Source: Spirochaetales bacterium
Lineage (GTDB): Bacteria; Spirochaetota; Spirochaetia; DSM-27196; SLST01
NCBI GenBank assembly: GCA_019038705.1
Contig: JAHOYX010000019.1
Location: 1-57,502, forward strand
Direction of reading: 5' to 3'
DNA: 57,502 nt
Within the stretch, counting starts at the first letter, position 1. Each line of letters opens with the position of its first letter. The position numbers and the translations under genes were made by a program. Positions 1 through 17,683 of the stretch are shown piece after piece. The notes below the pieces were generated by a model. It saw only the letters and a list, made by a program, of their open reading frames with translations. It made no database searches and had not been told where the DNA came from.

Positions 1-768
1 ATAGGCCTCCAGCAGTTCGTCGGCACGATCACGGATTTCCGTCGTCGTCGCGCCCTCAATGAGCGTCTCAGCGTCCGGAATACGGATGACCGTGCGCGCG
101 GCCGCTCCAACGGCAAGTCGGAACCGGGTGACGTACGGCGGGGCGCCGTGCGAAGCGCTGTTCCCGTCCATCCCGGCCTCAGCGTACACGGATAGCTTGG
201 ACAACGCGTTGGAGCGCCTTGGCGCGACCTTGCGGTAGAAGACGAACGGGGCCGGCTGTCGGGGGATGATGACCTTTGTCATCAATTCATCCTCACCGAG
301 GAGTGTCTGTCCGGGCCCGGTGATGAACTCCATAATTGGCAGCGCTCTCTCAGTGGATGCGGTTGCCAGCACGACGGTGGCGCCTGCCGCGTAGAGGTAG
401 GGGAGCGTATCCCCCGCGGGTGAGGCGTTGCAGATATTCCCTCCGATTGTCCCCGCGTTTCGGACGGCCGGCGATGCGAACTCGGCAATTGCCGCGGTCA
501 GGCCGGGAGGCGCCGACGGATGGGCTGCAACATCGTTCAGTGTCACCGCTGCCCCGATGGTCAGGTCTGATGCCGTTTCGGTAACCGCACGCAATTCCGG
601 CAGACGTCCGATGAACATCGGCGGTGCGTCCAGCTGGATCGGAAGGGGCCCGCCTCGGCGGTGGCGCACCATGAGATCGGTTCCGCCCGCAACCGGGATT
701 GCTCGCTCCGTCGCGAGGATCTCCAGGGCGTCGGCGAGTGATGTTGGCGTGAACCCGTTACTGCCCAT
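1..768 (-). CDS. FAD-binding (CoxM/XdhB-type) subunit of a molybdenum hydroxylase; 3' end runs off the window (not in the supplied ORF track)
   Basis: My own translation of the minus strand from ATG 768..766 gives MGSNGFTPTSLADALEILATERAIPVAGGTDLMV...VRNAGTIGGNICNASPAGD. I checked all 256 codons down to position 1 and found no stop. GGTDL and TIGGN are FAD-binding PCMH-type motifs. The ATG overlaps the upstream 2Fe-2S gene stop by 11 nt. Confidence 0.8.
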   Translation of the reverse strand, partial: MGSNGFTPTSLADALEILATERAIPVAGGTDLMVRHRRGGPLPIQLDAPPMFIGRLPELRAVTETASDLTIGAAVTLNDVAAHPSAPPGLTAAIAEFASPAVRNAGTIGGNICNASPAGDTLPYLYAAGATVVLATASTERALPIMEFITGPGQTLLGEDELMTKVIIPRQPAPFVFYRKVAPRRSNALSKLSVYAEAGMDGNSASHGAPPYVTRFRLAVGAAARTVIRIPDAETLIEGATTTEIRDRADELLEAY

Positions 769-1225
769 TGAGCGTCTCGCTTGCCGCCTGCACCGCCTGC
801 ACGATCATGTTGTACCCGGTGCAGCGACACAGGTTACCCGACAACCCGCGCCTGATTTCGTCTTCCGACGGTTTCGAGTTCTCGCGAAGAAGCGCCTCGG
901 TAGCCATGACAAATCCGGGGGTGCAGAAGCCGCACTGAACGCCACCGCTGTCCGAGAATGCCTGCTCTATGACTGCATATCGATCTGTCTCGCAAAAGCC
1001 CTCAATGGTGAGGATCTCGCCGTCGGCGGCCGCGGCAACGGGAGTGACGCATGAATTCACGATTCGCCCGTTGAGGAGAACCGCGCATGCGCCGCATTCT
1101 CCCTCTCCACAGCCCTCCTTCACGCCGTGGAGTCCCAGGTCGATACGAAGCACATCCAGCAGGCGGGCCAGAGGTTCCGCTTCAACCACCACCGGGTTGC
1201 CGTTCACCGTAAACGAGATTCTCAT
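758..1225 (-). CDS. [2Fe-2S]-binding small subunit of molybdenum hydroxylase (CoxS/XdhC-type)
   Basis: The ORF track gives 758..1309. I prefer the ATG at 1225 (MRISFTVNG...), which forms an ATGA overlap with the upstream stop. Cysteine motifs [20 protein letters not shown] and CRCTGY are present. Confidence 0.9.
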   Translation of the reverse strand: MRISFTVNGNPVVVEAEPLARLLDVLRIDLGLHGVKEGCGEGECGACAVLLNGRIVNSCVTPVAAAADGEILTIEGFCETDRYAVIEQAFSDSGGVQCGFCTPGFVMATEALLRENSKPSEDEIRRGLSGNLCRCTGYNMIVQAVQAASETLNGQ

Positions 1226-3378
1226 TGCGCGCCCCCCTGGGTTCGCACAATCCGTTCGAGATACTCGGGCGTCAACGGGATTTGATGGATCTCCACCCCC
1301 AGAGCGCACTCCACCGCGTCGCCGAGTGCGGGGGGAGGGCCGGTGAGCGGGATCTCGCCAACTCCCTTTGCGCCGAAGGGGCCGCCGTGATAGGGATTGG
1401 AAACGAGGTTCACGTGTATCTCCGGGGTGTCAAGGGAGCCCGGGATGACATAGTCGGTCATGGTGCGCTGTTGGAAGGCACCATCTCGCACCTCGAGCAA
1501 CTCGGTTGTGCCGTAGCCGATCCCCTGGGCTATGCCCCCGTGGATCTGACCAATGACGATCCGCTCGTCGATCGCCGTCCCGATATCGAAGCTCGCCCAG
1601 ACGGTCAACGGGCGGATGGCATAAGTGAGCAGGTCCAGCTCGATCTCTATGATATTGACCCCCCAGCTGAATGCCGGGTACGCATCGCCGGTGAAGGTCG
1701 ATTGGTCCCACTCAATCTCGGCGGGTTGCTGGTAGTTTGCTTCCACCTCCACCGGTTGTCCGGGGCCGGGCGAGGTGGCATCCTTGAGTTTCAGTGCGGC
1801 CGTGTGCAGGAGGCCCCCGACCACCATTACGGTTCGCGATGCGACGGTGGGCCCGGAGTCCGGAACCTGATCCGTGTCCGGGTTCTGGAACACCACATTG
1901 CCAATAGGAACGCCGAGCGTCTCGGCCACGATCTTGCGAAGCGTCGTCTCCGCGCCCTGACCCATTTCTACGTTGGAACAGAGCACTTCGACCTTGCCGT
2001 CTGCGTGACCCCTCAGCTTGACCCGTGCTTTGATGATGTCACGCTCGCCGCTCCCGGTGAAGCCGCAGCCGTGATTGAACAGTGACACGCCGATGCCCCG
2101 CCGGGTGATGCCGGTGGCCCGCTCGTACTCGGGGCGTTTTCGGTTGTACTCCGACTGAGTGAGGACGGAGTCTATCATCTCCTCCATTTTCACCGGGTCT
2201 CGCAAGGTGCCGCCTGTTATCGTTCGGTCACCCTGGCGGACGAGGTGGCGGCGTTTGAATGAGAGGGGGTCTTCGCCATGTTTTCGGGCGAGGTGACACA
2301 TGTGCATCTCGGACGCAAAGAAGGCCTGAGGCGATCCGAATCCTCTAAAGGCGCCGTACGGAACGATATTGGTCCTGTAGGCCTGCCCTTGAACGGAGAT
2401 CTCGGGGATGCGATACACTCCCGAAGCGTTGAACATTGCGCGTTGGAGAACCGTGGAGGACAGTCCCTCAAAGGCACCTCCGTCTATGCGAATGTCCGCA
2501 CAGGTGCTTTGCGCAAGACCGGATCTCCCAACACTGGACGCCAGCGTGATTCGCGAAGGGTGGCGTTTGGTGGATATCTCGATGTCCTGTCCCCGGTCCA
2601 GAACGAGCTTCACTGGTTGCCCCGTCTTGTGAGCGGCCAGCGCCACGTATCCGGCGAGAACCGAAGGAAAGTCTTCCTTGCCGCCGAAAGCGCCACCGGT
2701 TGTGGCCTGCACAACCCGGATTCTGTCCGCATCCCAGCCCAGAACCGTAACGAGCGCTTTGTGAACGTAGTACGGGCATTGGATGGACCCGGTGACCGTA
2801 ATCCTGTGGCCTTCGCACCAGGCGGCCATTGCCTGAGGCTCCAGGTAGATGTGTTCCTGCGCTCCGGTGTCAAATGTCTCGGTGATCGTGAACGCAAGAT
2901 CCCCGGATGGTTGATCTGTTGGACCCGGCGCGCCCTCGAGGTGGTATTCCAGGTGGTAGTCCACGAAGCACTCCGGGTCCTCGACCGTTTCCGCGCCGTC
3001 AATACCGAACACCGGGGTGAGATCCTCGTACTCGACGGTCACGGCTGCGAGCAGTTCATCTATCACAGCCACGTCCGGCCCGGCGATGAGCAGGATCGGT
3101 TGGCCGACATACTCCACCATGTCCACCGGAAAGAGCGGCCAGCCGTCGTTGATCATGCGTACCGCGTTGGTGCCCGGTATGTCGCTATGGTCCACGGTGA
3201 CGTAGCCGTCCGGGAGCGCAGGTGTCTCAACTCGGAGAATTCTTGCCCGGGGTCGTGTCGAGAGGAGCAGTCGCGCGTGGAGTGCTCCCGCTATCCTCAT
3301 GTCGTCCAGGTAATTCGCCCTGCCGGCGCTCTTCTGTGGCGAGTCAGTGCGCGGGATGGATCGACTGATGGTACTCAT
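1222..3378 (-). CDS. Molybdopterin-binding large subunit, xanthine dehydrogenase/aldehyde oxidase family (XdhA-like, 718 aa)
   Basis: Has the GGAFGGKE and GPFGAKGVGE (catalytic Glu) motifs and an N-terminal hammerhead-like region. ATGA overlap with the upstream PLP gene. Confidence 0.9.
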   Translation of the reverse strand: MSTISRSIPRTDSPQKSAGRANYLDDMRIAGALHARLLLSTRPRARILRVETPALPDGYVTVDHSDIPGTNAVRMINDGWPLFPVDMVEYVGQPILLIAGPDVAVIDELLAAVTVEYEDLTPVFGIDGAETVEDPECFVDYHLEYHLEGAPGPTDQPSGDLAFTITETFDTGAQEHIYLEPQAMAAWCEGHRITVTGSIQCPYYVHKALVTVLGWDADRIRVVQATTGGAFGGKEDFPSVLAGYVALAAHKTGQPVKLVLDRGQDIEISTKRHPSRITLASSVGRSGLAQSTCADIRIDGGAFEGLSSTVLQRAMFNASGVYRIPEISVQGQAYRTNIVPYGAFRGFGSPQAFFASEMHMCHLARKHGEDPLSFKRRHLVRQGDRTITGGTLRDPVKMEEMIDSVLTQSEYNRKRPEYERATGITRRGIGVSLFNHGCGFTGSGERDIIKARVKLRGHADGKVEVLCSNVEMGQGAETTLRKIVAETLGVPIGNVVFQNPDTDQVPDSGPTVASRTVMVVGGLLHTAALKLKDATSPGPGQPVEVEANYQQPAEIEWDQSTFTGDAYPAFSWGVNIIEIELDLLTYAIRPLTVWASFDIGTAIDERIVIGQIHGGIAQGIGYGTTELLEVRDGAFQQRTMTDYVIPGSLDTPEIHVNLVSNPYHGGPFGAKGVGEIPLTGPPPALGDAVECALGVEIHQIPLTPEYLERIVRTQGGAQ

Positions 3379-4553
3379 CCAGGTATCCCCACCCGGTCGG
3401 TCGCCGCTTCAATGTCCTTCAGACCCGTGCCGGTGATCAGCAGCACGGTGACTGCGTCCCGCGGCAGTGTATCTGATACGCGCAGAAGTCCGGCCACCGA
3501 CGATGCCGCCGCCGGTTCGGCAAACAGTCCGCTCTGTGAGGAGAGCATCTGCTGGGCGTCCAGTATCTCGGCATCGGAGACCTCAACGCAGTGCCCCCCG
3601 TGCCGGGCGAGTTTCTTCACCGCACTGCGACCATTCGCCGGGACTCCCACCGAAATCGAATCAGCAATGGTGTTGCCCGGAACCGGATCGTCAAACTCAC
3701 CGCGCGCGAGCGCCCGGCAGATGGCATTACTCCCCTCGGCCTGCACGGCGTAGATCGTGGGCATGGTGTCGGCCAATCCGAGCCGGATGAGGTCCTCGAA
3801 CCCCTTGAAGACGCCACCGAGAATGACGCCGTCGCCTGTCGGGACGAATACTGCGTCGGGCATGCGGCCCAGCTGGGCGAACACTTCCAGCGCGACCGTC
3901 TTCTTGCCCTCAATGGTAAGTGGATTGAATCCCGTGTTCCTGCTCAGGCCCCCGTGCAGGGCGGTGTATTCCAGCGAGTCGCGGCAGGCGTCGTCATAGG
4001 TACCGTCAACCACGGTGACCTCGGCACCGTACTGGAGGGACTGCACCAGTTTCGCCCGCGGCACCGACTTCGGGACAAAGATCCTTACCGAGAGCCCCGC
4101 GGCCGCGCCTATCCCGGCCATGGAACTCGCGGCGTTGCCGGTGGAGGCAACGACCACGTCGCTGATCTCATGTTTGCGTGCGAACGCGGCGACCAGGAGA
4201 GACGCACGGTCCTTCAGCGAGCCGGTCGGGTTGGCCGTGTCGTCCTTCAGGTAAATGCCGGGTCGACCCAGGTGTTGGCGTAGTCTCGCCGGTTCCCACA
4301 GCGGTGTGTTGCCCACCGGGACTACGGGAAAGTACCGAGGCTCCACCGGAAGCAATTCCGCGTAGGGCAGGGAAGGTGCTTCCGCGCCGGGGGGCGGCCA
4401 CGGGCCCCGTAGTTCACCGCGGAGACCTACTTCGAGGACGCCGCGAAGCGGTTGGTCCGGCTCGTGCCGCTGTGAGCAGTCCGGACAGAGCATGAGATCC
4501 GGTGTGATGGCAAACTGTCTATCGCACTCGCTGCAGCGATAGAAGAACTCCAC
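3375..4553 (-). CDS. PLP-dependent fold-type II enzyme, threonine-synthase-like, with N-terminal Cys4 zinc ribbon
   Basis: NPTGSLKDRAS matches the ThrC-type PLP-lysine motif. The N-terminus YRCSECDRQF...LCPDCS is a zinc ribbon. GTG start shares 1 nt with the upstream stop. Confidence 0.8.
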   Translation of the reverse strand: MEFFYRCSECDRQFAITPDLMLCPDCSQRHEPDQPLRGVLEVGLRGELRGPWPPPGAEAPSLPYAELLPVEPRYFPVVPVGNTPLWEPARLRQHLGRPGIYLKDDTANPTGSLKDRASLLVAAFARKHEISDVVVASTGNAASSMAGIGAAAGLSVRIFVPKSVPRAKLVQSLQYGAEVTVVDGTYDDACRDSLEYTALHGGLSRNTGFNPLTIEGKKTVALEVFAQLGRMPDAVFVPTGDGVILGGVFKGFEDLIRLGLADTMPTIYAVQAEGSNAICRALARGEFDDPVPGNTIADSISVGVPANGRSAVKKLARHGGHCVEVSDAEILDAQQMLSSQSGLFAEPAAASSVAGLLRVSDTLPRDAVTVLLITGTGLKDIEAATDRVGIPG

Positions 4554-5563
4554 TACGGGCGACCTCCCATGAGAAGCGAGAGAAGGCTCTTGGATGTGTG
4601 AAGCCGATTCTCCGCCTCGTCGTAGATGATCGAGTGCTCACTGTCCAGCAGTTCATCGGTAATCTCGTTGCCGCGGTCTGCGGGGAGCGCATGCATGATC
4701 TTTGCCCCCTTGTTAGCAGCCGCGAAACGTTCGGTTGTGCAGATCCAATCCTTGTGCTTCTCGAGGTTCTCCTTCATGACTCGGGCGTGATCCTCGTCAT
4801 CCACAAAATCGTCGAAGTGCGCAAAACCACCCCAGTTCTTGGGTATCACGATATCCGCGCCGGCGATCGCGTCGTCCATGGAATCCACCACGGAGACCGA
4901 CCCGCCGCCTGCGTCGGCCAGTTTCCGGGCGCGAGCGAGCATGGAGTCCTGCAGGGGGAACTCCGGCGGATTGGCCACAACCACGTCCAGGCCAAACCGG
5001 GGGAAGAGGAGAGCCTGCGTGACCGGTACCGAGAGGGGCTTCGCGTGCGTCGTTGCGTAGGCCCAACTTACCGCTACCTTGAGCCCTTTGAGGTCTGCGC
5101 CGAAGTGCTCCTGTATGGTCATCAGGTCTGCGAGGCCCTGGAGCGGATGGTAGAGATCGTCCTGCATCGAGATCACCGGCACCTCCGCATGCTCCGCGAT
5201 CTCCTCGAGGTAGGCGTTTCCGAGGTCGTAGAAGCAGTTGCGAATTGAGATTGCGTCACCCATCCGTGAAAGGACCTTGGCGGTGTCCTTCGGCGATTCT
5301 CCGTGGGTGATCTGCATCTTGTCCGGGGTGAGATCGTGGGCATGGCCGCCAAGCTGGGTCATGCCCCCTTCAAGGGAGTTTCGCGTTCGGGTTGACTGCT
5401 CGAAAAAGAGCATGAAGAGCGTCTTGTGTTTGAGGAGATCCTCGTATTGGCCCAACGCGTAGCGACGTTTCATGTCAAACGCGACCTCCAGCACGGTCCG
5501 GATCTCGCCGACCGACCAGTCGGCCAGGGTTATGAGGTCTCGGCCTCGAAGCAGGGTGTTCAC
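4553..5563 (-). CDS. ygeW: Carbamoyltransferase of the ATC/OTC superfamily, YgeW-like (336 aa)
   Basis: Has STRTRNS (carbamoyl-phosphate site), YHPLQGLAD (HPxQ) and HALPADRG. It lacks the OTC-type SMG loop. It sits next to the YgeY-like gene. The symbol is assigned by context and is not certain. Confidence 0.75.
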   Translation of the reverse strand: MNTLLRGRDLITLADWSVGEIRTVLEVAFDMKRRYALGQYEDLLKHKTLFMLFFEQSTRTRNSLEGGMTQLGGHAHDLTPDKMQITHGESPKDTAKVLSRMGDAISIRNCFYDLGNAYLEEIAEHAEVPVISMQDDLYHPLQGLADLMTIQEHFGADLKGLKVAVSWAYATTHAKPLSVPVTQALLFPRFGLDVVVANPPEFPLQDSMLARARKLADAGGGSVSVVDSMDDAIAGADIVIPKNWGGFAHFDDFVDDEDHARVMKENLEKHKDWICTTERFAAANKGAKIMHALPADRGNEITDELLDSEHSIIYDEAENRLHTSKSLLSLLMGGRP

Positions 5564-6792
5564 AGTTGTTCCTCCAGGATGTAGGGGAGCAGGGCGTAGA
5601 ACGCCGCTGCTTTCTCAAGATGGTCAATGGGTGTTCGTTCGTTCGGGGCGTGGGCGTAGATCTCGTTGCCGGGCCCAAACCCGATTGTCGGGATGCCATG
5701 CTTTCCACAAATAGCGACGCCATTCGTGGAGAAGGTCCATTTGTCGATTTTCGGCTCTTCTTTGAAGAGTGAAGTGCAGGTGGCGGCCCCCGCCTTCACC
5801 AGCGGATGGTCCTCCTCGATCTTCCACGTGGGGAAATAGGACTCCTGCGGGTAGGAGGTGCCGGTGTACCCTGCCTTGTCGTACATCGTGAGGGACACAG
5901 CCGGTTTCCCGGCGTTGCCGCCCGGTGGCGACGGCAAGCCCGATACGATTTCCCTGACCTCCCCGAGGGCCACTTCCTTTGTCTCACCCCAGGTGAGTCT
6001 CCGGTCAATGTGGAGGTCCGCCCCGTCGGCCACCGCGCACAGCGAGGGAGCGGAAGACCTGAATCGAGACACGACGACAGAGCCCTTGCCGAGGAAGGGA
6101 TCCGGTGCGAGGCGATCGTTGAGGGCTTCAATGCCCAGGGCGGCACGGGAACAGTGATAGATGGCATTGTCTCCACGCTCCGGGGCCGAGCCGTGGGCCG
6201 AGAGGCCGCTGAATGCAACATCAATCTCCATCCGTCCGCGGTGTCCCCGGTAGAGGCCCAGGTTGGTCGGTTCGGTGATGACGGCGAACTCCGGAATGAG
6301 TTTCTCCTGTTCTATCAGGTAGTTCCAGCACAGGCCGTCGCAATCCTCCTCCATGACCGTAAAGGTGAAGTAGACGCTCCACTCGCCGTCGTATCCGGCC
6401 TCCGTGAGAATACGCCCGGCCGTGATCATCGATGCCGCGCCGCCTTCCTGATCCACCGAACCGCGTCCGTAGACGTGACCGTCCTGGATCAGTCCGGAGA
6501 ACGGGTCGTGGTCCCACTGTGAGAGATCGCCGGTGTCAACCGTGTCAATGTGCGCATCTATGGCGAGCACTCGCGGGCCGTGACCGACTCGGGCGATGAG
6601 ATTGCCCAGACCGTCCACCCGGACTTCGTCGAATCCGGCACTTCGTGCCATCTCCTCGATTGCACCAATGACCGGACCCTCCTCGCCACTCAGGCTGGGA
6701 ATGCGGATCATCTGTGCGAGGTTGTCCGCGGTGTAGTCGCGCAGGCCACTTGCCGCATTGAGTATCGTGTCGTCGGAAATCAAATCGATCAT
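5560..6792 (-). CDS. ygeY: M20-family metallopeptidase/amidohydrolase, YgeY-like
   Basis: Has IDAHIDTVD, VDQEGG and MEEDCDG metal-ligand motifs. The ORF track start is 6882; I prefer ATG 6792 (MIDLISDD...), which is preceded by GGAGG and does not overlap the upstream gene. Confidence 0.8.
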   Translation of the reverse strand: MIDLISDDTILNAASGLRDYTADNLAQMIRIPSLSGEEGPVIGAIEEMARSAGFDEVRVDGLGNLIARVGHGPRVLAIDAHIDTVDTGDLSQWDHDPFSGLIQDGHVYGRGSVDQEGGAASMITAGRILTEAGYDGEWSVYFTFTVMEEDCDGLCWNYLIEQEKLIPEFAVITEPTNLGLYRGHRGRMEIDVAFSGLSAHGSAPERGDNAIYHCSRAALGIEALNDRLAPDPFLGKGSVVVSRFRSSAPSLCAVADGADLHIDRRLTWGETKEVALGEVREIVSGLPSPPGGNAGKPAVSLTMYDKAGYTGTSYPQESYFPTWKIEEDHPLVKAGAATCTSLFKEEPKIDKWTFSTNGVAICGKHGIPTIGFGPGNEIYAHAPNERTPIDHLEKAAAFYALLPYILEEQL

Positions 6793-6811
6793 ACCTCCAG
6801 ACTGCGAAAGT

Positions 6812-12300: not shown

Positions 12301-13103
12301 GTTGCGTTCCTCTCTGCCCCACGGAGTCCCCGGGTGATCGCCACCGCGGCCAGATGCGTGAGATATTCGCCGCTGAACCCCTGACGGTCGGGAAAGCCCG
12401 CTCCGAGGTCCGCAGGTGTGACTTCAACGGCCGGCTGCGATGTCCCGCGGATCTCATTCTCGACCGCTTCGAGCCGCTTGAATCTTCCCCGATTGCCGGT
12501 GAGCACAATCCGGCAGTCTGAGATGGATGTGCCGTCCAACTCGGTCAATACAACCACGGTGAACAGCGGATAGTTGAAGTGCGTCGGGGCGAATCGGTAC
12601 CAGTGGCTCTCCCACTCCCGGCTCGCATCCGCTCGGATCTCGGTAATTGCAGTCTCTGCTCCGAGTTCGCGATTTCCGATGTACTCCGACACCGGATAGG
12701 TGCCCGTTGTGGCGCCAACGATGGTCAGTTCGGCGTCCAGCGCGACCAGCGGTCCCACCACACTGCTCCACGGCGGAAAGAGGGCGAGGCTGCCGCCGAT
12801 GGTTATGCGGTTTCGGAGGGCGGGCGATGCGGCATCGTACAACGCCCTCGCCACGATATGACCAGGCCGGGCTGCCGCGATTGCAGATGCGGCGGCGGTG
12901 AACGTTGCGGCGCCTCCAATCCGTACGGATCCGTCGGTGACACGTACCGAAGCGATTCCAACGCCCGAGAGATCCGCCAGTGAACCGGACTGCGGGACAT
13001 TTCGCATGAATCCGGTCCCACCACCGTGCGGCCGCGTATCATTTTTCAGACATTCTGTGAGTTCATCTACAGATTTTGGGTAGACCCAGGTTACTTTGCT
13101 CAT
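12297..13103 (-). CDS. FAD-binding subunit of molybdenum hydroxylase (YgfM/CoxM-like, divergent)
   Basis: Has HGGGTGF and RNRITIGGSLA motifs. 268 aa. It occupies the position of ygfM in the E. coli order ssnA-ygfM-xdhD. Confidence 0.8.
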   Translation of the reverse strand: MSKVTWVYPKSVDELTECLKNDTRPHGGGTGFMRNVPQSGSLADLSGVGIASVRVTDGSVRIGGAATFTAAASAIAAARPGHIVARALYDAASPALRNRITIGGSLALFPPWSSVVGPLVALDAELTIVGATTGTYPVSEYIGNRELGAETAITEIRADASREWESHWYRFAPTHFNYPLFTVVVLTELDGTSISDCRIVLTGNRGRFKRLEAVENEIRGTSQPAVEVTPADLGAGFPDRQGFSGEYLTHLAAVAITRGLRGAERNAT

Positions 13104-13127
13104 TCAGATCTCATACCTCGTTGAGTC

Positions 13128-13156
13128 ATTGTCTGTCGACATTGGCGTGGAGTCAA
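13128..13156 (-). promoter_or_regulatory. Putative internal sigma70-like promoter, TTGACT-N17-GACAAT (minus-strand reading)
   Basis: On the plus strand, AGTCAA is at 13151..13156 and ATTGTC at 13128..13133, with a 17-nt spacer. It lies in the 86-nt gap before the FAD subunit gene. It shares ACAGACAATG with the element at 17655..17683. Confidence 0.3.
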
Positions 13157-13189
13157 GATTATTGTTCCACTGCATCGCGGGGCGGAAAG

Positions 13190-14524
13190 CTACGGTGCAA
13201 TCCCGTTCATCCGCCCCCAGAGTGCTTCCGCCTGTCCCCTGGCTTCTTCATAGATCGGGGCGATATCGAGACTGAAGATCCGATCCTCCATGACGAGACG
13301 CCCGTTCACCATGACCGTCTCGACGACGCCCGATCCCATACCAAACACCATGTGCCCGGCGATATTTTCCGGAACCAGCGGTGTTGGTGATAGGTAGTTG
13401 GCCACCACCAGGTCCGCCTTGTAGCCCGGCTCGATCCGGCCGAACTTCGCGCCGTAGACCCGCTCCAGGAGCCGGTTGCCGGCGGCCAGCGCGCCGAGGA
13501 AGTCTCCGGGCCACCATGCGCCGCCTTCGTCCTTGTGTTTGAAGTAGGCGGCCTTGATCTCCTCGAACATATCCGCGCCGATGCCGTCGGTGCCCAGCCC
13601 CAGGTTCTTCACCTCGGGGATACGCTTCGTGTAGCCCACATTGTTGTTCATGTTGGATCGTGCGTTGTGGATCAGGAAGGAATCCCGTTCGTTGAGGGCC
13701 GCAATCTCCTCGGAGGAGAGGTGGACGCCGTGCACCAGGAGCGTCTTGTCGGACAGGAGTCCGAAGCTGTCCAGCCGCGGGATGAGATCCTTGCCGTATG
13801 TCGCGTGGCTGTGGGACACGTCGTAGCGGTCTTCCGCCAGGTGGACGTGGAAGCCGCGACCGGTCTTCTCGCAGGCGTCGGCGATCAGTTTGAGCGCTTC
13901 GTCGGGCAGGGTCACCGGCGCGTGGCCGCCGATATGAGCTTCGGTCAGGCCGGACCAGGTTCCTTTCGCTTTCTCTGCATCAATCCCTTGCGCGAAGGCG
14001 ACGTTTTCCTCGACGCCGGCGATCATGTCATCGCGGCCGCGCCGGTCGCTCACCTCGTAACAGGTCGCTCCCCGAAGTCCTGTTTCCTCGAACGCCTTCT
14101 TGAGCACGTTCAAGCTGCCGGTGATGAACTGTGGGGACGCGTGGTGATCAATCACGGCCGTGGTGCCCGCGCGGATCGCGTCAATGGAGCAGATGAGCCC
14201 TGAGCTGTAGAGGCTCGCCTCGTCGATTGCCCGGTCCAGTCGCCACCACAGGTTCCTGAGAATCGATACGAAATCGGGGGTGGGCCCGATATCGGCCATG
14301 ATCCCTCTTGCGAGCCCCGAATACATATGATGGTGGCTGCAGACCAGGCCCGGGAAGAGGATCTTCCCGCCCGCATCGACCGTCTTGTCTTCTGCGACGA
14401 GGCCGGCGACCGTAAGATTGCGGCCCACCTCCTTGATCACGTCGTCCTCGACGAGGAGGTCGGTTCCCTCCCGTACGCGGGCCGGATCAAATTCGACCAG
14501 GGTTGCGTTCTTGAACAGCGTCAT
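13190..14524 (-). CDS. ssnA: SsnA-like amidohydrolase, paralog 2 (positional equivalent of E. coli ssnA, directly after ygfK)
   Basis: Has FPGLVCSHHHMYSGLARG, NLWWRLD and DHHAS motifs. 444 aa. Its start codon shares 1 nt with the ygfK-like stop (TAATG). Confidence 0.8.
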   Translation of the reverse strand: MTLFKNATLVEFDPARVREGTDLLVEDDVIKEVGRNLTVAGLVAEDKTVDAGGKILFPGLVCSHHHMYSGLARGIMADIGPTPDFVSILRNLWWRLDRAIDEASLYSSGLICSIDAIRAGTTAVIDHHASPQFITGSLNVLKKAFEETGLRGATCYEVSDRRGRDDMIAGVEENVAFAQGIDAEKAKGTWSGLTEAHIGGHAPVTLPDEALKLIADACEKTGRGFHVHLAEDRYDVSHSHATYGKDLIPRLDSFGLLSDKTLLVHGVHLSSEEIAALNERDSFLIHNARSNMNNNVGYTKRIPEVKNLGLGTDGIGADMFEEIKAAYFKHKDEGGAWWPGDFLGALAAGNRLLERVYGAKFGRIEPGYKADLVVANYLSPTPLVPENIAGHMVFGMGSGVVETVMVNGRLVMEDRIFSLDIAPIYEEARGQAEALWGRMNGIAP

Positions 14525-17500
14525 TACTTGACCTCCTCCAGCACGGGCCCGAAGAGGTGGGGCCGCGACTCGTGAACGATGGTGAAGAGTCGGAAGAAGT
14601 GCTCGTCCTGGGGCAGCTCTGCGAGGGGCATAGTGGCCTCCGTGCCGTTCTGCCTGTATCGCAGTGCATCCCCTTCAATGAGCCAGCCTGGGTTCTCCGA
14701 GTTGGCGAAGTCCTGCGCCGTCGAGAACACGGTGGGCTTATCGATGTAGGGACGGCCCTCCCAGGGGCAGAAGTTGCCGCAGTTCCCGCACTCGTTGCAG
14801 TAGGCGTCCACGTGCACGATCTCGTAGGGGTTGGAGAAGAGTGCCTCACCGGAGACCGGGGTCGCCAGGTTCGCCCGATTGGGACAGACGTCCACGCACT
14901 TGTTGCAGATATAGTCGCACTCGAGGCATCGGGAGAGTTCGGTCCTGCCGAAGGCCGCCGGCACGTAATCTGTGCGGGCATTCGGTTTCGCGGTGATCTT
15001 CTCCTTCTTCACTCGGATTTGCTCGTTTCGCTGGTCGGGATCCATGAAGGGCAGGGCTTCCACCCGCTCCCATCCGGCCTCTTCTTTCACGCAGATCGCG
15101 TCGGAAGCCCGCCGCCCCTCAGCGATACACCGCACGACTGTGGAGGTCCCGGTCCGGCTGTCCCCGATCAGGAACACGTTCTCGGACTCGGTCTCGCCTC
15201 CCTCCCTTGTGGCCACTTTGCCCCTGGAGTTCACGGTGAAACCCAATCCCTCCAGGAGTTTGGCGTCGGGGTCATCCCCGATCGCGTAGACAACGGAGTC
15301 CACCTTGAGCGTCTCGGTGGTGTCGGTGGGCACCGGGCGCCGCCGTCCGGAGGCATCCACCTCGCCTAATTCCATCACCCGGACGGTCAGTTCGCCGTCC
15401 TCAAAGCGTTCAGGGTTGCGCAGCCACTTGAAGGCCACATTCTCCTCGATGGCGTCTTCGTACTCCTCGCGACTCGCCGGCATCTGCTCAAAGGCCCGCC
15501 GGTAGACGATGGTCGCTTCCTCCACTCCCGGGCAGCGCAGGGCTGATCGGGCGCAGTCCATCGCCGTGTCACCGGCACCGATGACCACGACCCGTTTCCC
15601 CATCCGGAGCTTCGAACTGTCGCGGTTGAACTGGGTCAGGAAGGGCAGGGACGCGACCATGTTTTCGCCCGGGCCTTCAATGGGCAGGGTCCGGTTCTGG
15701 TAGCTTCCCAGCCCCAGGACGATGTAGTCGTAACCCCTGGCCTTGAGGTCGGTCAGGCCGAACGTCTCATCGACACTGAACACAAACTCGACCCCCTGGT
15801 CCCGGATATGGTCCACGTCGCTTGCGATGGCCTCACGGCTGATCCGGAAATGAGGCACCACGTATTGCACAATGCCACCGGCGTCTTTCTCCCGTTCGAA
15901 CACGGTGACGGAGAAGCCCTCGCGGACCAGGAAATATGCCGCCGACAGACCCGCGGGGCCGGCGCCCACCACCGCGACTTTGGCGTCGCGGCTGACCTCC
16001 GGCTTCCTCCATCGGGTCTTGTACTCCTCCATCCCGTGCAGAACGGCCAGCTTTTTCACCTCCCGGATGTTGATACAGCCTTCGTAATCCAGGCGGGTGC
16101 ACACGAGCTGGCACTGGTGGTCGCAGATGTTTCCGGTCATGGAGGGCAGGGCGTTGCGTTCGTAGATCGTTTCGAGGGCCTCGCCGTAGCGGCCTTCGCC
16201 CACGAGGCGGATGTATTCGGGAATGTGCTGACCGATGGCGCAGGCGGTAACGCAGGGAGCCTCGTAGCAATCGAAGACCGGCAGGGGCCCGGGGCTGCGC
16301 ACCTCGTCGGTGCCCCGGAACTCCTTGGTGATGGTCTCCTCGGAGAGGGCACGCCGGGCAAGTGCTTTGAGCGCCTCCACGTCTATGCCTTCCCGGTCCC
16401 ATTGATCGATCTCTTCAATCGCCCTTGCCATCTGCGCCTGTCGGAGGTAGCCGCCGGGCTTCAGCAAGTCGGTGGCCATGGTAATGGGCCGGATCCCCGT
16501 CTCGAAGACCGCTTTCACGTTGTGGATGGTAATGCCCCCGGAGTAGGAAATGGGCAGGTCGCCGCCGAAGTGCTCGCTGAGCTGCGCCGCCAAATTGATG
16601 GACAGGGGGAAGAGGGCGCGGCCGGACATGTACATCTCGTCCCCGGGCAGTGCGTTCCGGTTGTTCGCGCACCCCAGGGTGTTGGTGAGCTTCACGCCGA
16701 ACGTGAGGCCCTCGTGCGCCGCCACCTCGCGCAGACGGGTCAGCATGGGGATAGCGTCGATATACTGCAGATCGTGGGAGAAACCCTCGGGATCCAGGTC
16801 CACGTAGCCGTAGCCCAGTTCGTCCAGGATCTCCCGCACCCGGTCGAAACCAAGCAGGGTCGGGTTGAGTTTGACGTAGGTGTCCAGTTTCTGCTCGGTG
16901 AGCATGTAGGAGCAGATCGACTCGATTTCGTGGGGGGGGCAGCCGTGCATTGTGGACAGGGTCACCGAACCGCATATCTTCGCGGGGATCTTGTCGGCGA
17001 AGGCTCGCAGGTCCTGTGCCCTTTCGGGGAAGTACCGTGATGCGACATCGACCATCTCGCCAATCCAGCTCGTGAACTGCTGTTCGTCCCCGGAGTCCTT
17101 CATGCGGCGGAGGTACTGCTGCATCCGATCGGTCTTGATGCCCTCGAGGTCGTATCCAACGCTCATGTTGAAGATGAACGAGCGTCCCGAAGGTCCTTTC
17201 TTGAAGCCAAAGAGTTCCTCGATCAGGTGCAGGAGGATCCAGGCCTTTGCGTACTCCATCCAGGCCTCGGTGAGGGAAAGCTCGGTGGACCACTCGGTGT
17301 TGAAGCCCTCGTCGCAGGCATCGATACAGGGCTTGTCGATCTCCAGGGAATCCAGGATCTGCACGGTTTTCAACTCGATGAATCGGCTTCCGGTGAGGTA
17401 GGAGGTCAGGATATTCATGGCCAGCTGCGTGTGGGGACCGGCCGCGGGGCCGAGCACGGTGCCGCAGGTCTCGCCCAACAGGTCGATACCCCGCTCGTCC

Positions 17501-17616
17501 ATCTTCCGATACCAGGAACTCTCATGGATATCCATGATCGTCCCCTGCGCCTTGTACTCCTCGAAAACCCGCTCCAGCAATTCGGTAAGACCAACCAATC
17601 TCATTTTGTCGCCCAT
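14524..17616 (-). CDS. ygfK: YgfK-like multidomain Fe-S flavoprotein ('putative selenate reductase subunit YgfK'; DPD/GltD-like)
   Basis: About 1030 aa. Has the Fe-S motif CYEAPCVTAC, Rossmann motifs KVAVVGAGPAGLSAAYFL and RVVVIGAGDTAMDCAR, and C-terminal ferredoxin motifs CLECDYICNKCVDVCP and CNECGNCGNFCP. The ORF track starts at GTG 17634; I prefer ATG 17616, which has GGAGGA 4 nt upstream. Confidence 0.9.
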   Translation of the reverse strand: MGDKMRLVGLTELLERVFEEYKAQGTIMDIHESSWYRKMDERGIDLLGETCGTVLGPAAGPHTQLAMNILTSYLTGSRFIELKTVQILDSLEIDKPCIDACDEGFNTEWSTELSLTEAWMEYAKAWILLHLIEELFGFKKGPSGRSFIFNMSVGYDLEGIKTDRMQQYLRRMKDSGDEQQFTSWIGEMVDVASRYFPERAQDLRAFADKIPAKICGSVTLSTMHGCPPHEIESICSYMLTEQKLDTYVKLNPTLLGFDRVREILDELGYGYVDLDPEGFSHDLQYIDAIPMLTRLREVAAHEGLTFGVKLTNTLGCANNRNALPGDEMYMSGRALFPLSINLAAQLSEHFGGDLPISYSGGITIHNVKAVFETGIRPITMATDLLKPGGYLRQAQMARAIEEIDQWDREGIDVEALKALARRALSEETITKEFRGTDEVRSPGPLPVFDCYEAPCVTACAIGQHIPEYIRLVGEGRYGEALETIYERNALPSMTGNICDHQCQLVCTRLDYEGCINIREVKKLAVLHGMEEYKTRWRKPEVSRDAKVAVVGAGPAGLSAAYFLVREGFSVTVFEREKDAGGIVQYVVPHFRISREAIASDVDHIRDQGVEFVFSVDETFGLTDLKARGYDYIVLGLGSYQNRTLPIEGPGENMVASLPFLTQFNRDSSKLRMGKRVVVIGAGDTAMDCARSALRCPGVEEATIVYRRAFEQMPASREEYEDAIEENVAFKWLRNPERFEDGELTVRVMELGEVDASGRRRPVPTDTTETLKVDSVVYAIGDDPDAKLLEGLGFTVNSRGKVATREGGETESENVFLIGDSRTGTSTVVRCIAEGRRASDAICVKEEAGWERVEALPFMDPDQRNEQIRVKKEKITAKPNARTDYVPAAFGRTELSRCLECDYICNKCVDVCPNRANLATPVSGEALFSNPYEIVHVDAYCNECGNCGNFCPWEGRPYIDKPTVFSTAQDFANSENPGWLIEGDALRYRQNGTEATMPLAELPQDEHFFRLFTIVHESRPHLFGPVLEEVK

Positions 17617-17654
17617 GCGATCCTCCTGCTCCACGCCTTCACTGCGGGGCTGCC

Positions 17655-17683
17655 ATTGTCTGTGGGCACTCGCCCCGCGTCAA
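17655..17683 (-). promoter_or_regulatory. Putative operon promoter, TTGACG-N17-GACAAT (minus-strand reading)
   Basis: On the plus strand, CGTCAA is at 17678..17683 and ATTGTC at 17655..17660, with a 17-nt spacer. It lies about 40 nt upstream of the ygfK-like ATG, in the divergent intergenic region. Confidence 0.35.

Follow-up and report, generated by a model that had tools for sequence, protein, structure and literature searches.

A mosaic operon predicted to mediate reductive anaerobic purine degradation in a Spirochaetales bacterium

Introduction

The reductive pathway of anaerobic uric acid degradation, which proceeds through 2,8-dioxopurine and has also been named the isoxanthine pathway, was reconstituted by two studies in 2025 (10.1101/2025.05.19.654654 and 10.1101/2025.04.24.650524; commentary, PMC12990295). 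An initial annotation of the locus described here had likened its gene content to a form of reductive pyrimidine catabolism acting on a purine ring, which is what those experiments showed. It had also considered the substrates of YgfK, SsnA, YgeW and YgeY to be unassigned, a statement now outdated as the enzymology was solved in 2025.

Results

Organization of the operon

The stretch of DNA analyzed, hereafter called the window, is an entire contig of 57,502 bp recorded by NCBI as "MAG: Spirochaetales bacterium," in agreement with the spirochaetal host suspected initially. Listing of the open reading frames, together with inspection of stop-to-stop frames, start codons and ribosome binding sites, yielded 13 consecutive minus-strand coding sequences from the ATG at 17616 to the contig end, exactly the arrangement first reported. 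Ten of the 12 junctions are overlaps of 1 to 11 nt and the other two are gaps: from g1 to g13 there are an overlap of 1 nt, a gap of 86 nt, overlaps of 4, 8, 4 and 4 nt, a gap of 19 nt, and overlaps of 4, 1, 4, 4 and 11 nt. As the window is a complete contig, its left edge is the end of the contig and not that of the operon. The features are as follows.

P1, 17655 to 17683, minus strand: promoter-like site TTGACG-17-GACAAT (consensus scan)
g1, 17616 to 14524, minus strand: YgfK, predicted 2,8-dioxopurine oxidoreductase (DOPOR), 1030 aa; TIGR03315
g2, 14524 to 13190, minus strand: SsnA, predicted ring-opening amidohydrolase and YgfK partner, 444 aa; TIGR03314, NF005540
Gap between g2 and g3, 13104 to 13189, minus strand: 86 nt, read as a seam, with promoter-like site P2 (13156-13128, TTGACT-17-GACAAT)
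g3, 13103 to 12297, minus strand: FAD-binding subunit of Mo hydroxylase 1 (YgfM-like role), 268 aa; Pfam FAD_binding_5 and CO_deh_flav_C
g4, 12300 to 11833, minus strand: 2x[2Fe-2S] subunit of Mo hydroxylase 1, 155 aa; XdhC-type models, below cut-off
g5, 11840 to 9498, minus strand: Mo-binding subunit of hydroxylase 1, candidate urate to 2,8-dioxopurine reductase (XdhD/DOPDH-like), 780 aa
g6, 9501 to 8104, minus strand: cyclic amidohydrolase, allantoinase/DHOase-like, candidate ureidomethyl-hydantoin hydrolase replacing HyuA, 465 aa
g7, 8107 to 6812, minus strand: SsnA2, SsnA paralogue, 431 aa, intact; NF005540, below cut-off
Gap between g7 and g8, 6793 to 6811, minus strand: 19 nt, read as the deletion scar of a UacX/PreA-like reductase gene
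g8, 6792 to 5560, minus strand: YgeY, predicted M20 ureido-group hydrolase, 410 aa (407 with TTG 6783 as start codon); NF009555
g9, 5563 to 4553, minus strand: short YgeW-like carbamoyltransferase, 336 aa; below every cut-off
g10, 4553 to 3375, minus strand: threonine-synthase-like PLP enzyme, candidate terminal lyase in YgeX's place, 392 aa
g11, 3378 to 1222, minus strand: Mo-binding subunit of hydroxylase 2, candidate xanthine dehydrogenase, 718 aa
g12, 1225 to 758, minus strand: 2x[2Fe-2S] subunit of hydroxylase 2, 155 aa; NF043084
g13, 768 to beyond position 1, minus strand: FAD-binding subunit of hydroxylase 2, cut by the contig end, 256 of about 290 aa; NF043083

No gene for carbamate kinase, a purine permease, MocA, YqeB, YqeC or SelD was found on the 57.5-kb contig.

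Three related loci, L087, L088 and L089, share the order FAD subunit, Fe-S subunit, Mo subunit, cyclic amidohydrolase, SsnA2, UacX-like reductase, YgeY, carbamoyltransferase, ThrC-like enzyme, (MocA), second Mo subunit, Fe-S subunit and FAD subunit. Their products are 50 to 84% identical to those of g3-g13, with the same junction overlaps. The series 4, 8, 4, 4 ... 4, 1, 4, 4 recurs in L088, indicating that the tight coupling was inherited rather than arising by chance.

Enzyme families encoded by the operon

The proposal of a purine or urate catabolic operon was borne out by YgfK, SsnA and YgeY, which pass curated NCBIfam cut-offs and are 51 to 56% identical to the E. coli proteins. g1 scored 1328.5 bits against TIGR03315 (cut-off 835.3), with 51.5% full-length identity to E. 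coli YgfK. g2 reached 587.6 with TIGR03314 (cut-off 455.5) and 567 with NF005540 (cut-off 444), with 55.9% identity to E. coli SsnA, and g8 scored 492.6 with NF009555 (cut-off 321), with 52% identity to E. coli YgeY. The start codon attributed to g8, ATG 6792, is ACG in the two closest relatives, and the conserved TTG 6783 is better spaced from GGAGG. The gap between g7 and g8 may thus be 28 nt instead of 19, but it is a gap in both cases.

The family calls YgeW, YgeX and HyuA did not hold. g9 failed both YgeW models (183 bits versus a cut-off of 453, and 176 versus 500) and its identification as YgeW was rejected. It scored 237 with the OTC model (cut-off 281) and harbors the motifs STRTR, HPLQ and HALP. 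It shares the KPLSVP and HKDW-CT motifs with YgeW but lacks the YgeW insertions, and it is 68 to 84% identical to the gene products found at the same position in L087-L089. Similarly, g6 is not HyuA or a D-hydantoinase: it scored 214 with TIGR02033 (cut-off 393), and its best score, 316, was obtained with the allantoinase model TIGR03178 (cut-off 358). It is 31% identical to HyuA and keeps the catalytic motifs HxH, FK (carboxylated Lys), HAE, HVS and DHA. Genes of the g6 type are found upstream of YgfK or beside a Mo subunit in at least seven related loci.

The expected XDH-type enzymes are present as two three-subunit (Mo/FeS/FAD) hydroxylases, encoded by g3-g5 and g11-g13. In hydroxylase 1, all NCBIfam matches of g3 are weak (best, 52 bits), and its identity to the FAD subunit of L088 is 50%. 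g4 scored 156 bits with XdhC-type models, below the cut-off of 217, and is 71% identical to its L088 counterpart; this Fe-S subunit is separate, whereas E. coli XdhD combines the Fe-S domain and the Mo subunit in one fused protein. g5 is under all NCBIfam cut-offs. Of the E. coli proteins, it resembles XdhD (36.8%, 499 bits) more closely than XdhA (32%, 393 bits), and it contains an XdhD-specific loop with the equivalent of Glu606 (LGEGKEG versus IGEGKAP) that is missing from XdhA and g11. In hydroxylase 2, the best matches of g11, to PucD (362 bits) and the Se-dependent XDH (346 bits), fall short of the cut-offs, and g11 is 65% identical to the second Mo subunit of L088. Its motifs GGKE, FRGFG and GEIP correspond to Glu802, Arg880 and Glu1261 of bovine XOR, the canonical XDH catalytic residues. 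g12 scored 170.5 with the XdhC-type model NF043084 (cut-off 217), with 49% identity to E. coli XdhC, and g13 scored 129 bits with the XdhB-type model NF043083, with 32.5% identity to E. coli XdhB. In relatives, the genes that follow the g13 counterpart code for a 486-aa PLP protein and an 8-oxoguanine deaminase.

The ThrC-like enzyme as candidate terminal lyase

Identification of g10 as YgeX was rejected, as the two align with 27% identity over 129 residues only and g10 is ThrC-like instead, with an N-terminal CxxC...CxxC zinc ribbon and ThrC models as its best NCBIfam matches. It is possible, but in our opinion rather unlikely, that g10 is not a diaminopropionate lyase. It might be a genuine threonine synthase present in the cluster by chance, might act on a ureido-amino acid (e.g., by eliminating urea or carbamate from albizziin), or might be a racemase for a D-configured intermediate; with the last two activities, the final step would fall to a CysK-like partner of 486 aa, probably encoded just past the contig end. 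g10 is indeed annotated as a threonine synthase and its score is exactly at the TIGR00260 thrC cut-off (167.1), the gene for the CysK-like PLP protein directly follows genes of the g10 type in 28 loci, and the pathway may proceed in the R/D configuration. The ThrC-like and CysK-like pair also sometimes occurs alone outside purine clusters, next to dnaE or pab genes, and thus the substrate of g10 might not be diaminopropionate. Nevertheless, the motif VNSVNP.R.EGQKT of four solved ThrCs, which surrounds their phosphate-site residues, is replaced in the g10 family by the invariant RNT..NP.T.EGKK. In 80 metagenome loci, the ThrC-like gene adjoins that for YgeY or the carbamoyltransferase, with no gene of the YgeX type; its immediate upstream neighbor codes for one of these two in 28 of 61 loci, and none of about 90 loci with a ThrC-like gene has a gene of the YgeX type. 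Finally, in the complete cluster L087 the g10-type protein is the sole PLP enzyme, the 486-aa protein being absent. We therefore retain g10 as the candidate lyase.

An orphaned SsnA paralogue and the scar of a lost reductase gene

g7 is 35% identical to g2 and scored 382 with NF005540 (cut-off 444). Its metal-binding and catalytic motifs (HxH, HxxE, His and Asp) are conserved, and its 60% identity to L088 is unremarkable next to the 59 to 75% of its neighbors. Intact and ordinary in its divergence, it may still be in use.

In five of five relatives, including the two nearest SsnA2 relatives (72% and 66%), the gene after SsnA2 codes for a DHO_dh plus 2x[4Fe-4S] reductase (PreA/UacX-like); no UacX-like sequence was found anywhere in the 57,502-bp window. 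The SsnA type accompanies YgfK in 15 of 17 loci and UacX in none, whereas the SsnA2 type accompanies UacX in 5 of 5 loci and YgfK in none outside the window. Among the loci compared, the window alone has both types. Directly 3' of the g7 stop codon the window reads ACG GGT GAA CTT TCG, where the L090 counterpart, ATG GCT GAA CTG TCG, forms codons 1 to 5 of its UacX-like gene and that of L093 retains ATG GCT GCG CTT TCA TAG. This relic leads into CTGGAGGT, a stretch that recurs at the 3' end of the UacX-like gene of L090. The relic is common to the window and L093 (93% nucleotide identity) and in part to L092 (83.5%). We read the 19-nt gap as the deletion scar of a UacX/PreA-like reductase gene.

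g7 is probably the orphaned partner of that reductase, a redundant relic whose reading frame is still intact. Such redundancy is likely because SsnA2 is already degraded in sister lineages: L092 and L093, the closest relatives, retain only fragments of it with different deletion boundaries, and no SsnA2 gene is present in L097, in which the cyclic amidohydrolase gene directly abuts that of YgeY, with YgfK-SsnA nearby. A separate, selected role for g7, namely, ring opening of a different reduced purine, production of the alternative 5-ureido-dihydrouracil branch, or a deaminase feeding purines in, appears somewhat improbable. The full-length 431-aa frame with its motifs, the ordinary divergence from L088, the translational coupling to g6 by a 4-nt overlap and the two products reported for SsnA are consistent with such a role. 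However, every relative examined couples SsnA2 to the UacX-like reductase missing here, different deletions removed most of the gene in L092 and L093, L097 does without it, and what remains of SsnA2 has diverged faster than the genes on either side (83% versus 93% nucleotide identity in L093, and 76% versus 83.5% in L092).

Origin of the mosaic

Synteny suggests that g3-g13 represents a single ancestral cluster type that also occurs in other phyla, that its UacX-like reductase gene was deleted and that YgfK-SsnA was added upstream. A literal fusion of the E. coli blocks ygfK-ssnA-ygfM-xdhD, hyuA/ygeY/ygeW/ygeX and xdhACB in one transcription unit of unknown enzymology, as first proposed, is quite improbable. 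Gene order does resemble those blocks, and YgfK, SsnA and YgeY match at the orthologue level, but the YgeW, YgeX and HyuA models failed, the second SsnA paralogue is left over, g3-g13 is collinear with clusters of another type than in E. coli, which contain the UacX-like reductase, the enzymology has been solved, and a promoter-like site lies within the 86-nt gap.

Composition points to a separate origin of the first two genes. GC3 is 0.83 for g1, the contig maximum, and 0.81 for g2, compared with 0.67 to 0.77 for g3-g13 and a mean of 0.67 (maximum, 0.74) for the remaining contig genes. P1, which lies upstream of g1 in a divergent intergenic region of 130 nt, and P2 are promoter-like by consensus match only; they share a 32-nt ungapped similarity, equalled in 2 of 500 shuffles. 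L087 and L088 start with the FAD-subunit gene, the counterpart of g3, which in the window comes just past the 86-nt gap. We read this gap as the seam at which a compositionally foreign YgfK-SsnA pair, possibly with its own promoter, was placed upstream of the ancestral cluster g3-g13. That the juxtaposition is a metagenome assembly chimera is very improbable: the contig belongs to a MAG, GC3 changes abruptly across the 86-nt gap and the contiguity of g2 and g3 is known from one assembly, but a chimera would require two breakpoints, as GC3 is near 0.68 in the genes right of g1, similar to g3-g13 and unlike g1-g2, and it is at odds with the 32-nt similarity common to both intergenic regions, with the UacX-less junction present in two independent assemblies, and with L097, another spirochaete-like contig that has YgfK-SsnA beside the same cluster type.

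Discussion

The operon likely mediates reductive (2,8-dioxopurine) anaerobic degradation of purines and uric acid, preceded by xanthine dehydrogenase, in a mosaic form with the history outlined above. The predicted chemistry is that of the 2025 biochemistry, extended to g1, g2 and g8 by homology alone. The putative roles of g5, g6, g9, g10 and g11 are drawn from position and gene displacement, as all of them score below curated cut-offs except g10, exactly at that of TIGR00260.

The xanthine dehydrogenase g11-g13 would convert hypoxanthine and xanthine to urate, from which g3-g5 (XdhD/YgfM-like with a separate Fe-S subunit) would strip the 6-oxo group to yield 2,8-dioxopurine. After reduction with NAD(P)H by g1 (YgfK), g2 (SsnA) would open the pyrimidine ring, giving ureidomethyl-hydantoin, and the allantoinase-like g6 would open the hydantoin to produce 2,3-diureidopropionate. 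Phosphorolysis of one ureido group by g9 would release carbamoyl phosphate, a source of ATP through a carbamate kinase encoded elsewhere, and hydrolysis of the other by g8 (YgeY) would give 2,3-diaminopropionate, which the ThrC-like g10 would convert to pyruvate and ammonia. Compared with E. coli, three steps would thus be carried out by other enzyme families, with g6 for HyuA, g9 for YgeW and g10 for YgeX.

In the ancestral cluster, the dearomatizing step was probably performed by SsnA2 with a UacX/PreA-like partner (FMN, 2x[4Fe-4S]). The gene of the latter would then have been deleted in the lineage of the window, leaving the 19-nt scar, and the foreign YgfK-SsnA pair set upstream across the 86-nt seam, with g7 orphaned. 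The pathway itself was already known; what is new here is the architecture, in which one reductase module, YgfK-SsnA, appears to have displaced another, SsnA2 and its UacX-like partner.

Layout of the operon and its surroundings

ORF listing, stop-to-stop frames and inspection of start codons and ribosome-binding sites gave 13 successive minus-strand genes, g1 to g13, running from the ATG at 17616 to the contig end; the window is one complete contig of 57,502 bp. Their junctions are, in order, an overlap of 1 nt, a gap of 86 nt, overlaps of 4, 8, 4 and 4 nt, a gap of 19 nt, and overlaps of 4, 1, 4, 4 and 11 nt; the run of coding sequences and the junction pattern described in the initial annotation thus proved exact. 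The start of g8 (ygeY) is ambiguous. Its ATG at 6792 lies only 1 nt from GGAGGT and is replaced by ACG in the two closest relatives, loci L092 and L093, and the TTG at 6783, which is conserved, stands at a better distance from its ribosome-binding site (GGAGG), so the gap between g7 and g8 may be 28 nt instead of 19 nt.

Upstream of g1, an intergenic region of 130 nt faces a divergent Cys-rich ORF, followed by murI:

17747-18061, plus strand: 104-aa ORF with many CxxC motifs, oriented away from ygfK and immediately preceding murI
18062-18904: murI (TIGR00067, 200 bits against a cut-off of 147)

The 104-aa ORF had no match in Pfam or NCBIfam. The other 40 kb of the contig carry housekeeping genes (rsgA, mutS2, V-type ATPase, uvrA, phoH, ybeY, pgk, tpi, map and htrA). 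A 1168-aa ORF between uvrA and phoH (35631-39137, plus strand) and four minus-strand ORFs at the right contig end (53216-57251; 399, 201, 489 and 166 aa) matched nothing in Pfam at E <= 1e-5. Scanned against Rfam over its full length, the window returned no matches, and thus no purine or Moco riboswitch, and no tRNAs were found in it.

Three sigma-70-like matches occur in the 18.1 kb of the operon strand, two of which fall in its only two intergenic stretches:

17683-17655, minus strand: promoter-like site upstream of g1 (consensus match)
13156-13128, minus strand: promoter-like site inside the 86-nt gap (consensus match)

The two sites are identical at 23 of 32 positions (TCTTGAC...ACAGACAATG), a score reached by 2 of 500 shuffles. 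This similarity between both intergenic regions hints at two similarly built promoters or at a shared operator. We found no convincing terminator in the 86-nt gap. Because a promoter-like consensus match lies within that gap, the proposal that the 13 genes form one transcription unit is not established.

The operon encodes a variant of a known purine pathway

We assigned families with NCBIfam profiles and determined identities by BLASTP against the E. coli K-12 proteins.

Families of the operon genes, all on the minus strand (scores in bits against the model cut-off)
g1: YgfK/DOPOR equivalog; TIGR03315, 1328.5 against 835.3; 51.5% identity to E. coli YgfK over the full length
g2: SsnA; TIGR03314, 587.6 against 455.5; 55.9% identity to E. 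coli SsnA
g3, g4, g5: FAD, 2Fe-2S and Mo subunits; all below NCBIfam cut-offs
g6: cyclic amidohydrolase; best model allantoinase, 316 against 358; D-hydantoinase TIGR02033, 214 against 393
g7: second SsnA-clade protein (SsnA2); 382 against 444; 35% identity to g2; catalytic motifs intact
g8: YgeY M20 hydrolase; NF009555, 492.6 against 321; TIGR03526, 489 against 321.5; 52% identity to E. coli YgeY
g9: 336-aa carbamoyltransferase; under every cut-off (OTC, 237 against 281; YgeW NF005538, 183 against 453)
g10: PLP enzyme resembling threonine synthases (ThrC-like); TIGR00260, 167.1, equal to the cut-off of 167.1
g11, g12, g13: second Mo, FeS and FAD enzyme; nearest models PucD and Se-dependent XDH, below cut-off

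The pathway was established in 2025 (10.1101/2025.05.19.654654, 10.1101/2025.04.24.650524; commentary in PMC12990295). According to these three sources, urate is converted to 2,8-dioxopurine by XdhD-YgfM or XdhAC, 2,8-dioxopurine to ureidomethyl-hydantoin by YgfK and SsnA, and ureidomethyl-hydantoin to 2,3-diureidopropionate by HyuA. YgeW then uses phosphate to remove one ureido group as carbamoyl phosphate, from which YqeA forms ATP, the hydrolase UacY standing in for YgeW in some organisms; YgeY yields 2,3-diaminopropionate, which YgeX converts to pyruvate and ammonia. In a C. difficile variant, the PydA-like FMN/Fe-S protein UacX (PF01180) takes the place of YgfK, and SsnA has been noted in Spirochaetota (Li et al. 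2025). None of the three sources mentions a ThrC-like enzyme, an SsnA paralogue or an allantoinase-like hydrolase.

The initial annotation, which had proposed purine/urate catabolism, was right at the level of the pathway, as YgfK, SsnA and YgeY score above curated cut-offs, and its description of reductive pyrimidine catabolism applied to a purine corresponds exactly to the published logic (10.1101/2025.05.19.654654, 10.1101/2025.04.24.650524, PMC12990295). Its statement that most substrates and products were unassigned has been overtaken by the same publications. The profile searches that bore out YgfK, SsnA and YgeY failed for YgeW and the hydantoinase and left the Se-Mo hydroxylase models below cut-off. 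Orthology to YgeW, YgeX and hydantoinase was not upheld; in all, five gene assignments stand under curated cut-offs. Judged from these sequences, the operon is a variant form of a pathway already known. Since that pathway has also been reconstituted, the operon no longer opens a question of long standing and is worth less as a template.

The uricolytic E. coli K-12 locus (ygeW-ygeX-ygeY-hyuA-yqeA ... ygfK-ssnA-ygfM-xdhD; Li et al. 2025; Liu et al. 2025) shares with the window YgfK, SsnA and YgeY at orthologue level (51-56%, above cut-offs), an XdhD-like Mo enzyme with the Glu606 loop, an FAD subunit, and the same logic: dehydroxylation, reduction, opening of two rings, removal of two ureido groups and a PLP lyase. 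It differs in that its Fe-S domain is fused to XdhD, whereas the window has a separate subunit. HyuA, YgeW and YgeX are replaced in the window by allantoinase-like, short YgeW-like and ThrC-like proteins, an SsnA paralogue is added, and all genes, XDH included, lie on one strand with overlapping junctions. The reductive pyrimidine (Pyd) pathway is alike in reaction order, with flavin/Fe-S reduction (PydA, dihydropyrimidine dehydrogenase), a cyclic amidohydrolase (PydB, dihydropyrimidinase) and decarbamoylation (PydC, beta-ureidopropionase), an analogy made explicit in the 2025 papers. In contrast, the substrate here is a purine with two rings and two ureido groups, and the route needs Mo-dependent dehydroxylation first and a PLP lyase last.

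Neither yqeA, yqeB, yqeC, mocA, ygeV nor a permease gene is present on the window contig, and tblastn with E. coli YqeA, YqeB, YqeC, MocA, XanQ, GhxQ and UacT gave no match in its 57.5 kb. The contig thus has no carbamate kinase linked to the carbamoyltransferase (YqeA query); in some strains this kinase is encoded elsewhere (Liu et al. 2025). selD was also absent from the 57.5 kb. The "selenium-dependent molybdenum hydroxylase" neighborhood reportedly came out of comparative genomics, with the TIGRFAM models Se_ygfK, Se_ssnA and selenium_YgeY. The window resembles it in passing TIGR03315, TIGR03314 and TIGR03526, but differs from it in that the Se-cofactor markers yqeB, yqeC and selD are not on the contig. 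Within this cluster type, only a YqeB-like gene (30% identity to E. coli YqeB, a Se-cofactor marker) after the second XDH (Mo2-FeS-FAD2) of locus L016 pointed to the selenium trait.

Alternative families at known steps

Both Mo enzymes scored higher with XDH/XdhD models than with CO dehydrogenase, isoquinoline oxidoreductase, 4-hydroxybenzoyl-CoA reductase or aldehyde oxidoreductase, for which the context is also contrary. In the second enzyme, all three subunit types are present in g11-g13 and all XDH models are below cut-off (pucD, 362 against 784, for g11). The g11 protein carries GGKE, FRGFG and GEIP motifs, which we take to be the equivalents of E802, R880 and E1261 of bovine XOR (catalytic Glu/Arg/Glu). 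The Mo subunit of the first enzyme, g5, is closer to E. coli XdhD (36.8%, 499 bits) than to XdhA (32%, 393 bits) by BLASTP, and it reached 587 on TIGR03313 against a cut-off of 1102. It has the XdhD-specific loop with the equivalent of Glu606 (LGEGKEG against IGEGKAP), a residue singled out by Li et al. 2025; the loop is missing from XdhA and g11. g5 is therefore a candidate urate 6-dehydroxylase of the XdhD/XdhAC type, its regiochemistry being beyond what sequence predicts.

The cyclic amidohydrolase g6 does not qualify as a HyuA of the D-hydantoinase family (TIGR02033/IPR011778). It is a distant homologue, with 31% identity to HyuA and all metal and catalytic motifs intact. Similarly, g9 failed both models of the YgeW knotted carbamoyltransferase (NF005538, and TIGR03316 with 176 against 500); the YgeW-specific motifs KPLSVP and HKDW-CT are present and the YgeW insertions absent.

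The frequency of these families was assessed around ThrC-like genes. A scan of metagenome contigs gave 80 loci, which were tabulated by tblastn along with L005 and L006, for a total of 82. YgeY is found in 29 of them, SsnA in 22, a Mo subunit in 21, YgfK in 19, MocA in 18, true YgeW in 15 and a g9-type transferase in 15. YgeY or a g9-type transferase lies directly upstream of the ThrC-like gene in 28 of the 61 loci whose upstream sequence was long enough. The g6-type amidohydrolase occurs in these loci with 46-50% identity, directly upstream of YgfK or beside the Mo subunit, and an E. coli-type HyuA match was obtained only once among the 82 loci, at 28% identity (tblastn). No locus of the 82 has a YgeX-type gene, as all 28 weak YgeX matches obtained by tblastn overlap the ThrC-like gene itself. 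So, on the strength of this recurrence, the allantoinase-like, short YgeW-like and ThrC-like proteins regularly belong to an environmental form of the cluster. In L015, two tandem g9-like carbamoyltransferase genes (35-38% identity to g9) are followed by a carbamate kinase gene (48% to YqeA; L015:14766-16853), which suggests more diversity in the removal of the two ureido groups.

A mosaic operon and a probable swap of reductase modules

The initial annotation had seen the operon as three E. coli blocks joined together. Instead, g3-g13 are collinear with another type of cluster, represented by L087 and L088, whose full order is FAD-FeS-Mo-cycAH-SsnA2-UacX-like-YgeY-CTase-ThrC-like-(MocA)-Mo2-FeS-FAD, where cycAH denotes the g6-type amidohydrolase and CTase the g9-type carbamoyltransferase. 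Identities are 50-84% with L088, where junction overlaps are identical, and 38-68% with L087. The collinearity holds for L087-L089 and takes in SsnA2, the allantoinase-like hydrolase, the short carbamoyltransferase, the ThrC-like enzyme and the second XDH. From these clusters, from L090 and L091 and from the C. difficile-type variant with UacX, the window differs in lacking the defining reductase gene and having a YgfK-SsnA pair instead.

We inspected five SsnA2-encoding contigs: L087-L089 and those with the nearest relatives, L090 (72%) and L091 (66%). Each of them has, directly after SsnA2 and overlapping it by 8 nt, a gene for a 363- to 384-aa DHO_dh + 2x[4Fe-4S] protein. In four of the five (L088-L091), this gene in turn overlaps the next one by 4 nt; this next gene is YgeY where identifiable. 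The best model for this reductase is PreA (137 bits, below cut-off), and its likeness to C. difficile UacX is one of domain architecture only. By tblastn, UacX-like sequence is absent from the entire window. The gene is missing exactly at the 19-nt gap between g7 and g8, where a relic of about five codons is left. The sequence 3' of the g7 stop reads ACG GGT GAA CTT TCG, against ATG GCT GAA CTG TCG in L090, where these are the first five codons of the reductase, and ATG GCT GCG CTT TCA TAG in L093. The relic runs on into CTGGAGGT, which is also present at the 3' end of the L090 reductase gene.

Over all loci compared, the two SsnA types keep to different partners. SsnA is accompanied by YgfK in 15 of 17 loci and by UacX in none, and SsnA2 by UacX in five of five and by YgfK in none; only the window has both SsnA types together. 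Its YgfK-SsnA pair, in which g2 overlaps the ygfK stop by 1 nt, also stands out by GC3 (0.83 for g1 and 0.81 for g2, against 0.67-0.77 for g3-g13 and a mean of 0.67 and maximum of 0.74 for the other genes of the contig). The 86-nt gap between g2 and g3 immediately precedes the gene with which the ancestral cluster begins. The g2-g3 junction is known from one assembly, and we judged it unlikely that its juxtaposition of YgfK-SsnA with g3-g13 arose from an assembly chimera.

The closest relatives share the UacX-less junction and retain only fragments of SsnA2. Across g8-g11, L093 is 93% and L092 83.5% identical to the window at the nucleotide level. Between cycAH and YgeY, L093 has 245 nt matching SsnA2 residues 329-372 and L092 about 380 nt matching residues 1-44 and 309-382, so that the deletion boundaries are not the same. 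These remnants are more diverged than the flanking genes (83% against 93% in L093, 76% against 83.5% in L092). L097, with an SsnA 78% identical to g2, has a direct overlap between cycAH and YgeY, and its YgfK-SsnA pair is convergent nearby. A neighbor-joining tree of the ThrC-like protein branches in the order L088/L089, L097, L092, and window with L093. In light of this order and of the SsnA2 fragments in sister loci, the window appears to be an intermediate state, in which the new module is already in place and the old reductase lost, but the old hydrolase not yet. In such a scenario, g3-g13 would represent the ancestral cluster, the UacX-like reductase gene would have been deleted at the 19-nt gap, and YgfK-SsnA would be present in its stead.

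The identity of g7 as a guanine, 8-oxoguanine or xanthine amidohydrolase was rejected, with 382 bits for SsnA against at most 135 bits for the deaminase models and no other xanthinase-pathway genes present. Matches to g7 in the genome collection are only distant (24-33%). Its homologues form a sizeable family (45-72% identity) in WOR-3, Marinimicrobia, Acidobacteria and Spirochaetia; intact relatives are at most 72% identical (saturated), and close relatives keep fragments only. g7 itself is intact and its divergence is not unusual, and it may keep a role of its own. Nevertheless, we lean toward g7 being redundant, a reading we consider somewhat more probable than not.

A ThrC-like enzyme at the end of the pathway

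g10 did not qualify as the diaminopropionate ammonia-lyase YgeX. Its only likeness to YgeX is 27% over 129 aa (BLASTP), and there is no other YgeX match in the window. It shares with threonine synthases (ThrC; PDB 6cgq, 2zsj, 2d1f and 1uim) the fold-type II PLP family and the SxKDR lysine motif, and the matches to these solved enzymes (E = 1e-40 to 1e-51) are unambiguous as to fold. It is below cut-off on the other ThrC models (e.g., 193 against 303 on NF006050). It differs from threonine synthases by an N-terminal four-Cys zinc ribbon and by its context, which is purine catabolism and not hom/thrB. In an alignment of 30 homologues, CxxC...CxxC at the N terminus is invariant and the PLP lysine motif reads SLKDR. 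In four solved ThrCs, the segment vNSvNP.R.EGqKT presumably includes the substrate-phosphate-binding residues (Asn154, Ser155 and Arg160 in the T. thermophilus enzyme). g10 does not conserve this phosphate-site segment in the alignment with these four enzymes, having rNTgfNPlTiEGkKT instead (RNT..NP.T.EGKK in the family), and R205, N206, T207 and T213 of g10 are invariant in 30 family members.

In 46 loci there is a gene for a divergent, roughly 486-aa CysK-like PLP protein, which in 28 of them lies directly downstream of the ThrC-like gene:

L088:19387-20847, L089:9823-11283, L097:6892-8352, L015:8074-9534 and 42 further loci: 486-aa CysK-like PLP gene

Its best model is cysK, with 88-97 bits, far under the cut-off of 351, and the gene after it usually encodes a protein scoring above the 8-oxoguanine deaminase cut-off (581-584 against 532). 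In L088, L089 and L097, both genes lie 3' of the second FAD subunit, the point at which the window contig ends, so the operon probably continues with them. The ThrC-like and 486-aa genes also occur as a pair alone, after dnaE in L012, L022 and L024 and beside pabA/pabB-like genes in L014, with no purine genes within ~5-10 kb. The stand-alone ThrC-like clades are nested among cluster-associated ones in the tree, and the role of the pair may not be strictly tied to the purine cluster.

Because the ThrC-like gene is the sole PLP enzyme of the complete L087 cluster, we slightly favor g10 as the terminal lyase. As a serious competing reading, g10 may act on a ureido or D-configured intermediate. 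We regard as evenly balanced the combined proposal that g10 is a so far unrecognized enzyme acting in the final step(s) of anaerobic purine breakdown and that the window represents a UacX-to-YgfK swap in progress. g10 would then be a non-orthologous diaminopropionate ammonia-lyase, or a lyase or racemase acting on D-configured ureido-amino-acid intermediates, and in most environmental (non-gut) forms of the pathway its type would stand in for YgeX. The swap would exchange a ferredoxin-type (UacX) for an NAD(P)H-type (YgfK) dearomatizing reductase, each tied to its own SsnA partner.

Implications

Outside gut bacteria, three "core" steps are routinely taken by the allantoinase-like, short YgeW-like and ThrC-like families. 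Surveys by BLAST or Pfam that start from E. coli or C. sporogenes proteins will overlook these families or give them wrong labels. The g10 type is automatically annotated as "threonine synthase" in hundreds of genomes, often paired with the 486-aa CysK-like protein, and such annotations inside these clusters are probably wrong. The pair may have a bearing on the stereochemistry and order of the last steps.

The interest of the operon lies in a module swap seemingly caught midway and in alternative families at known steps, chiefly the widely misannotated ThrC-like enzyme. YgfK with SsnA and the UacX-like reductase with SsnA2 would be exchangeable dearomatizing cassettes, each reductase with its cognate hydrolase, in agreement with the 2025 biochemical finding that the reduction step is detectable only when coupled to SsnA. 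This points to gene-pair replacement as the way in which the pathway switches its redox currency between NAD(P)H and ferredoxin.
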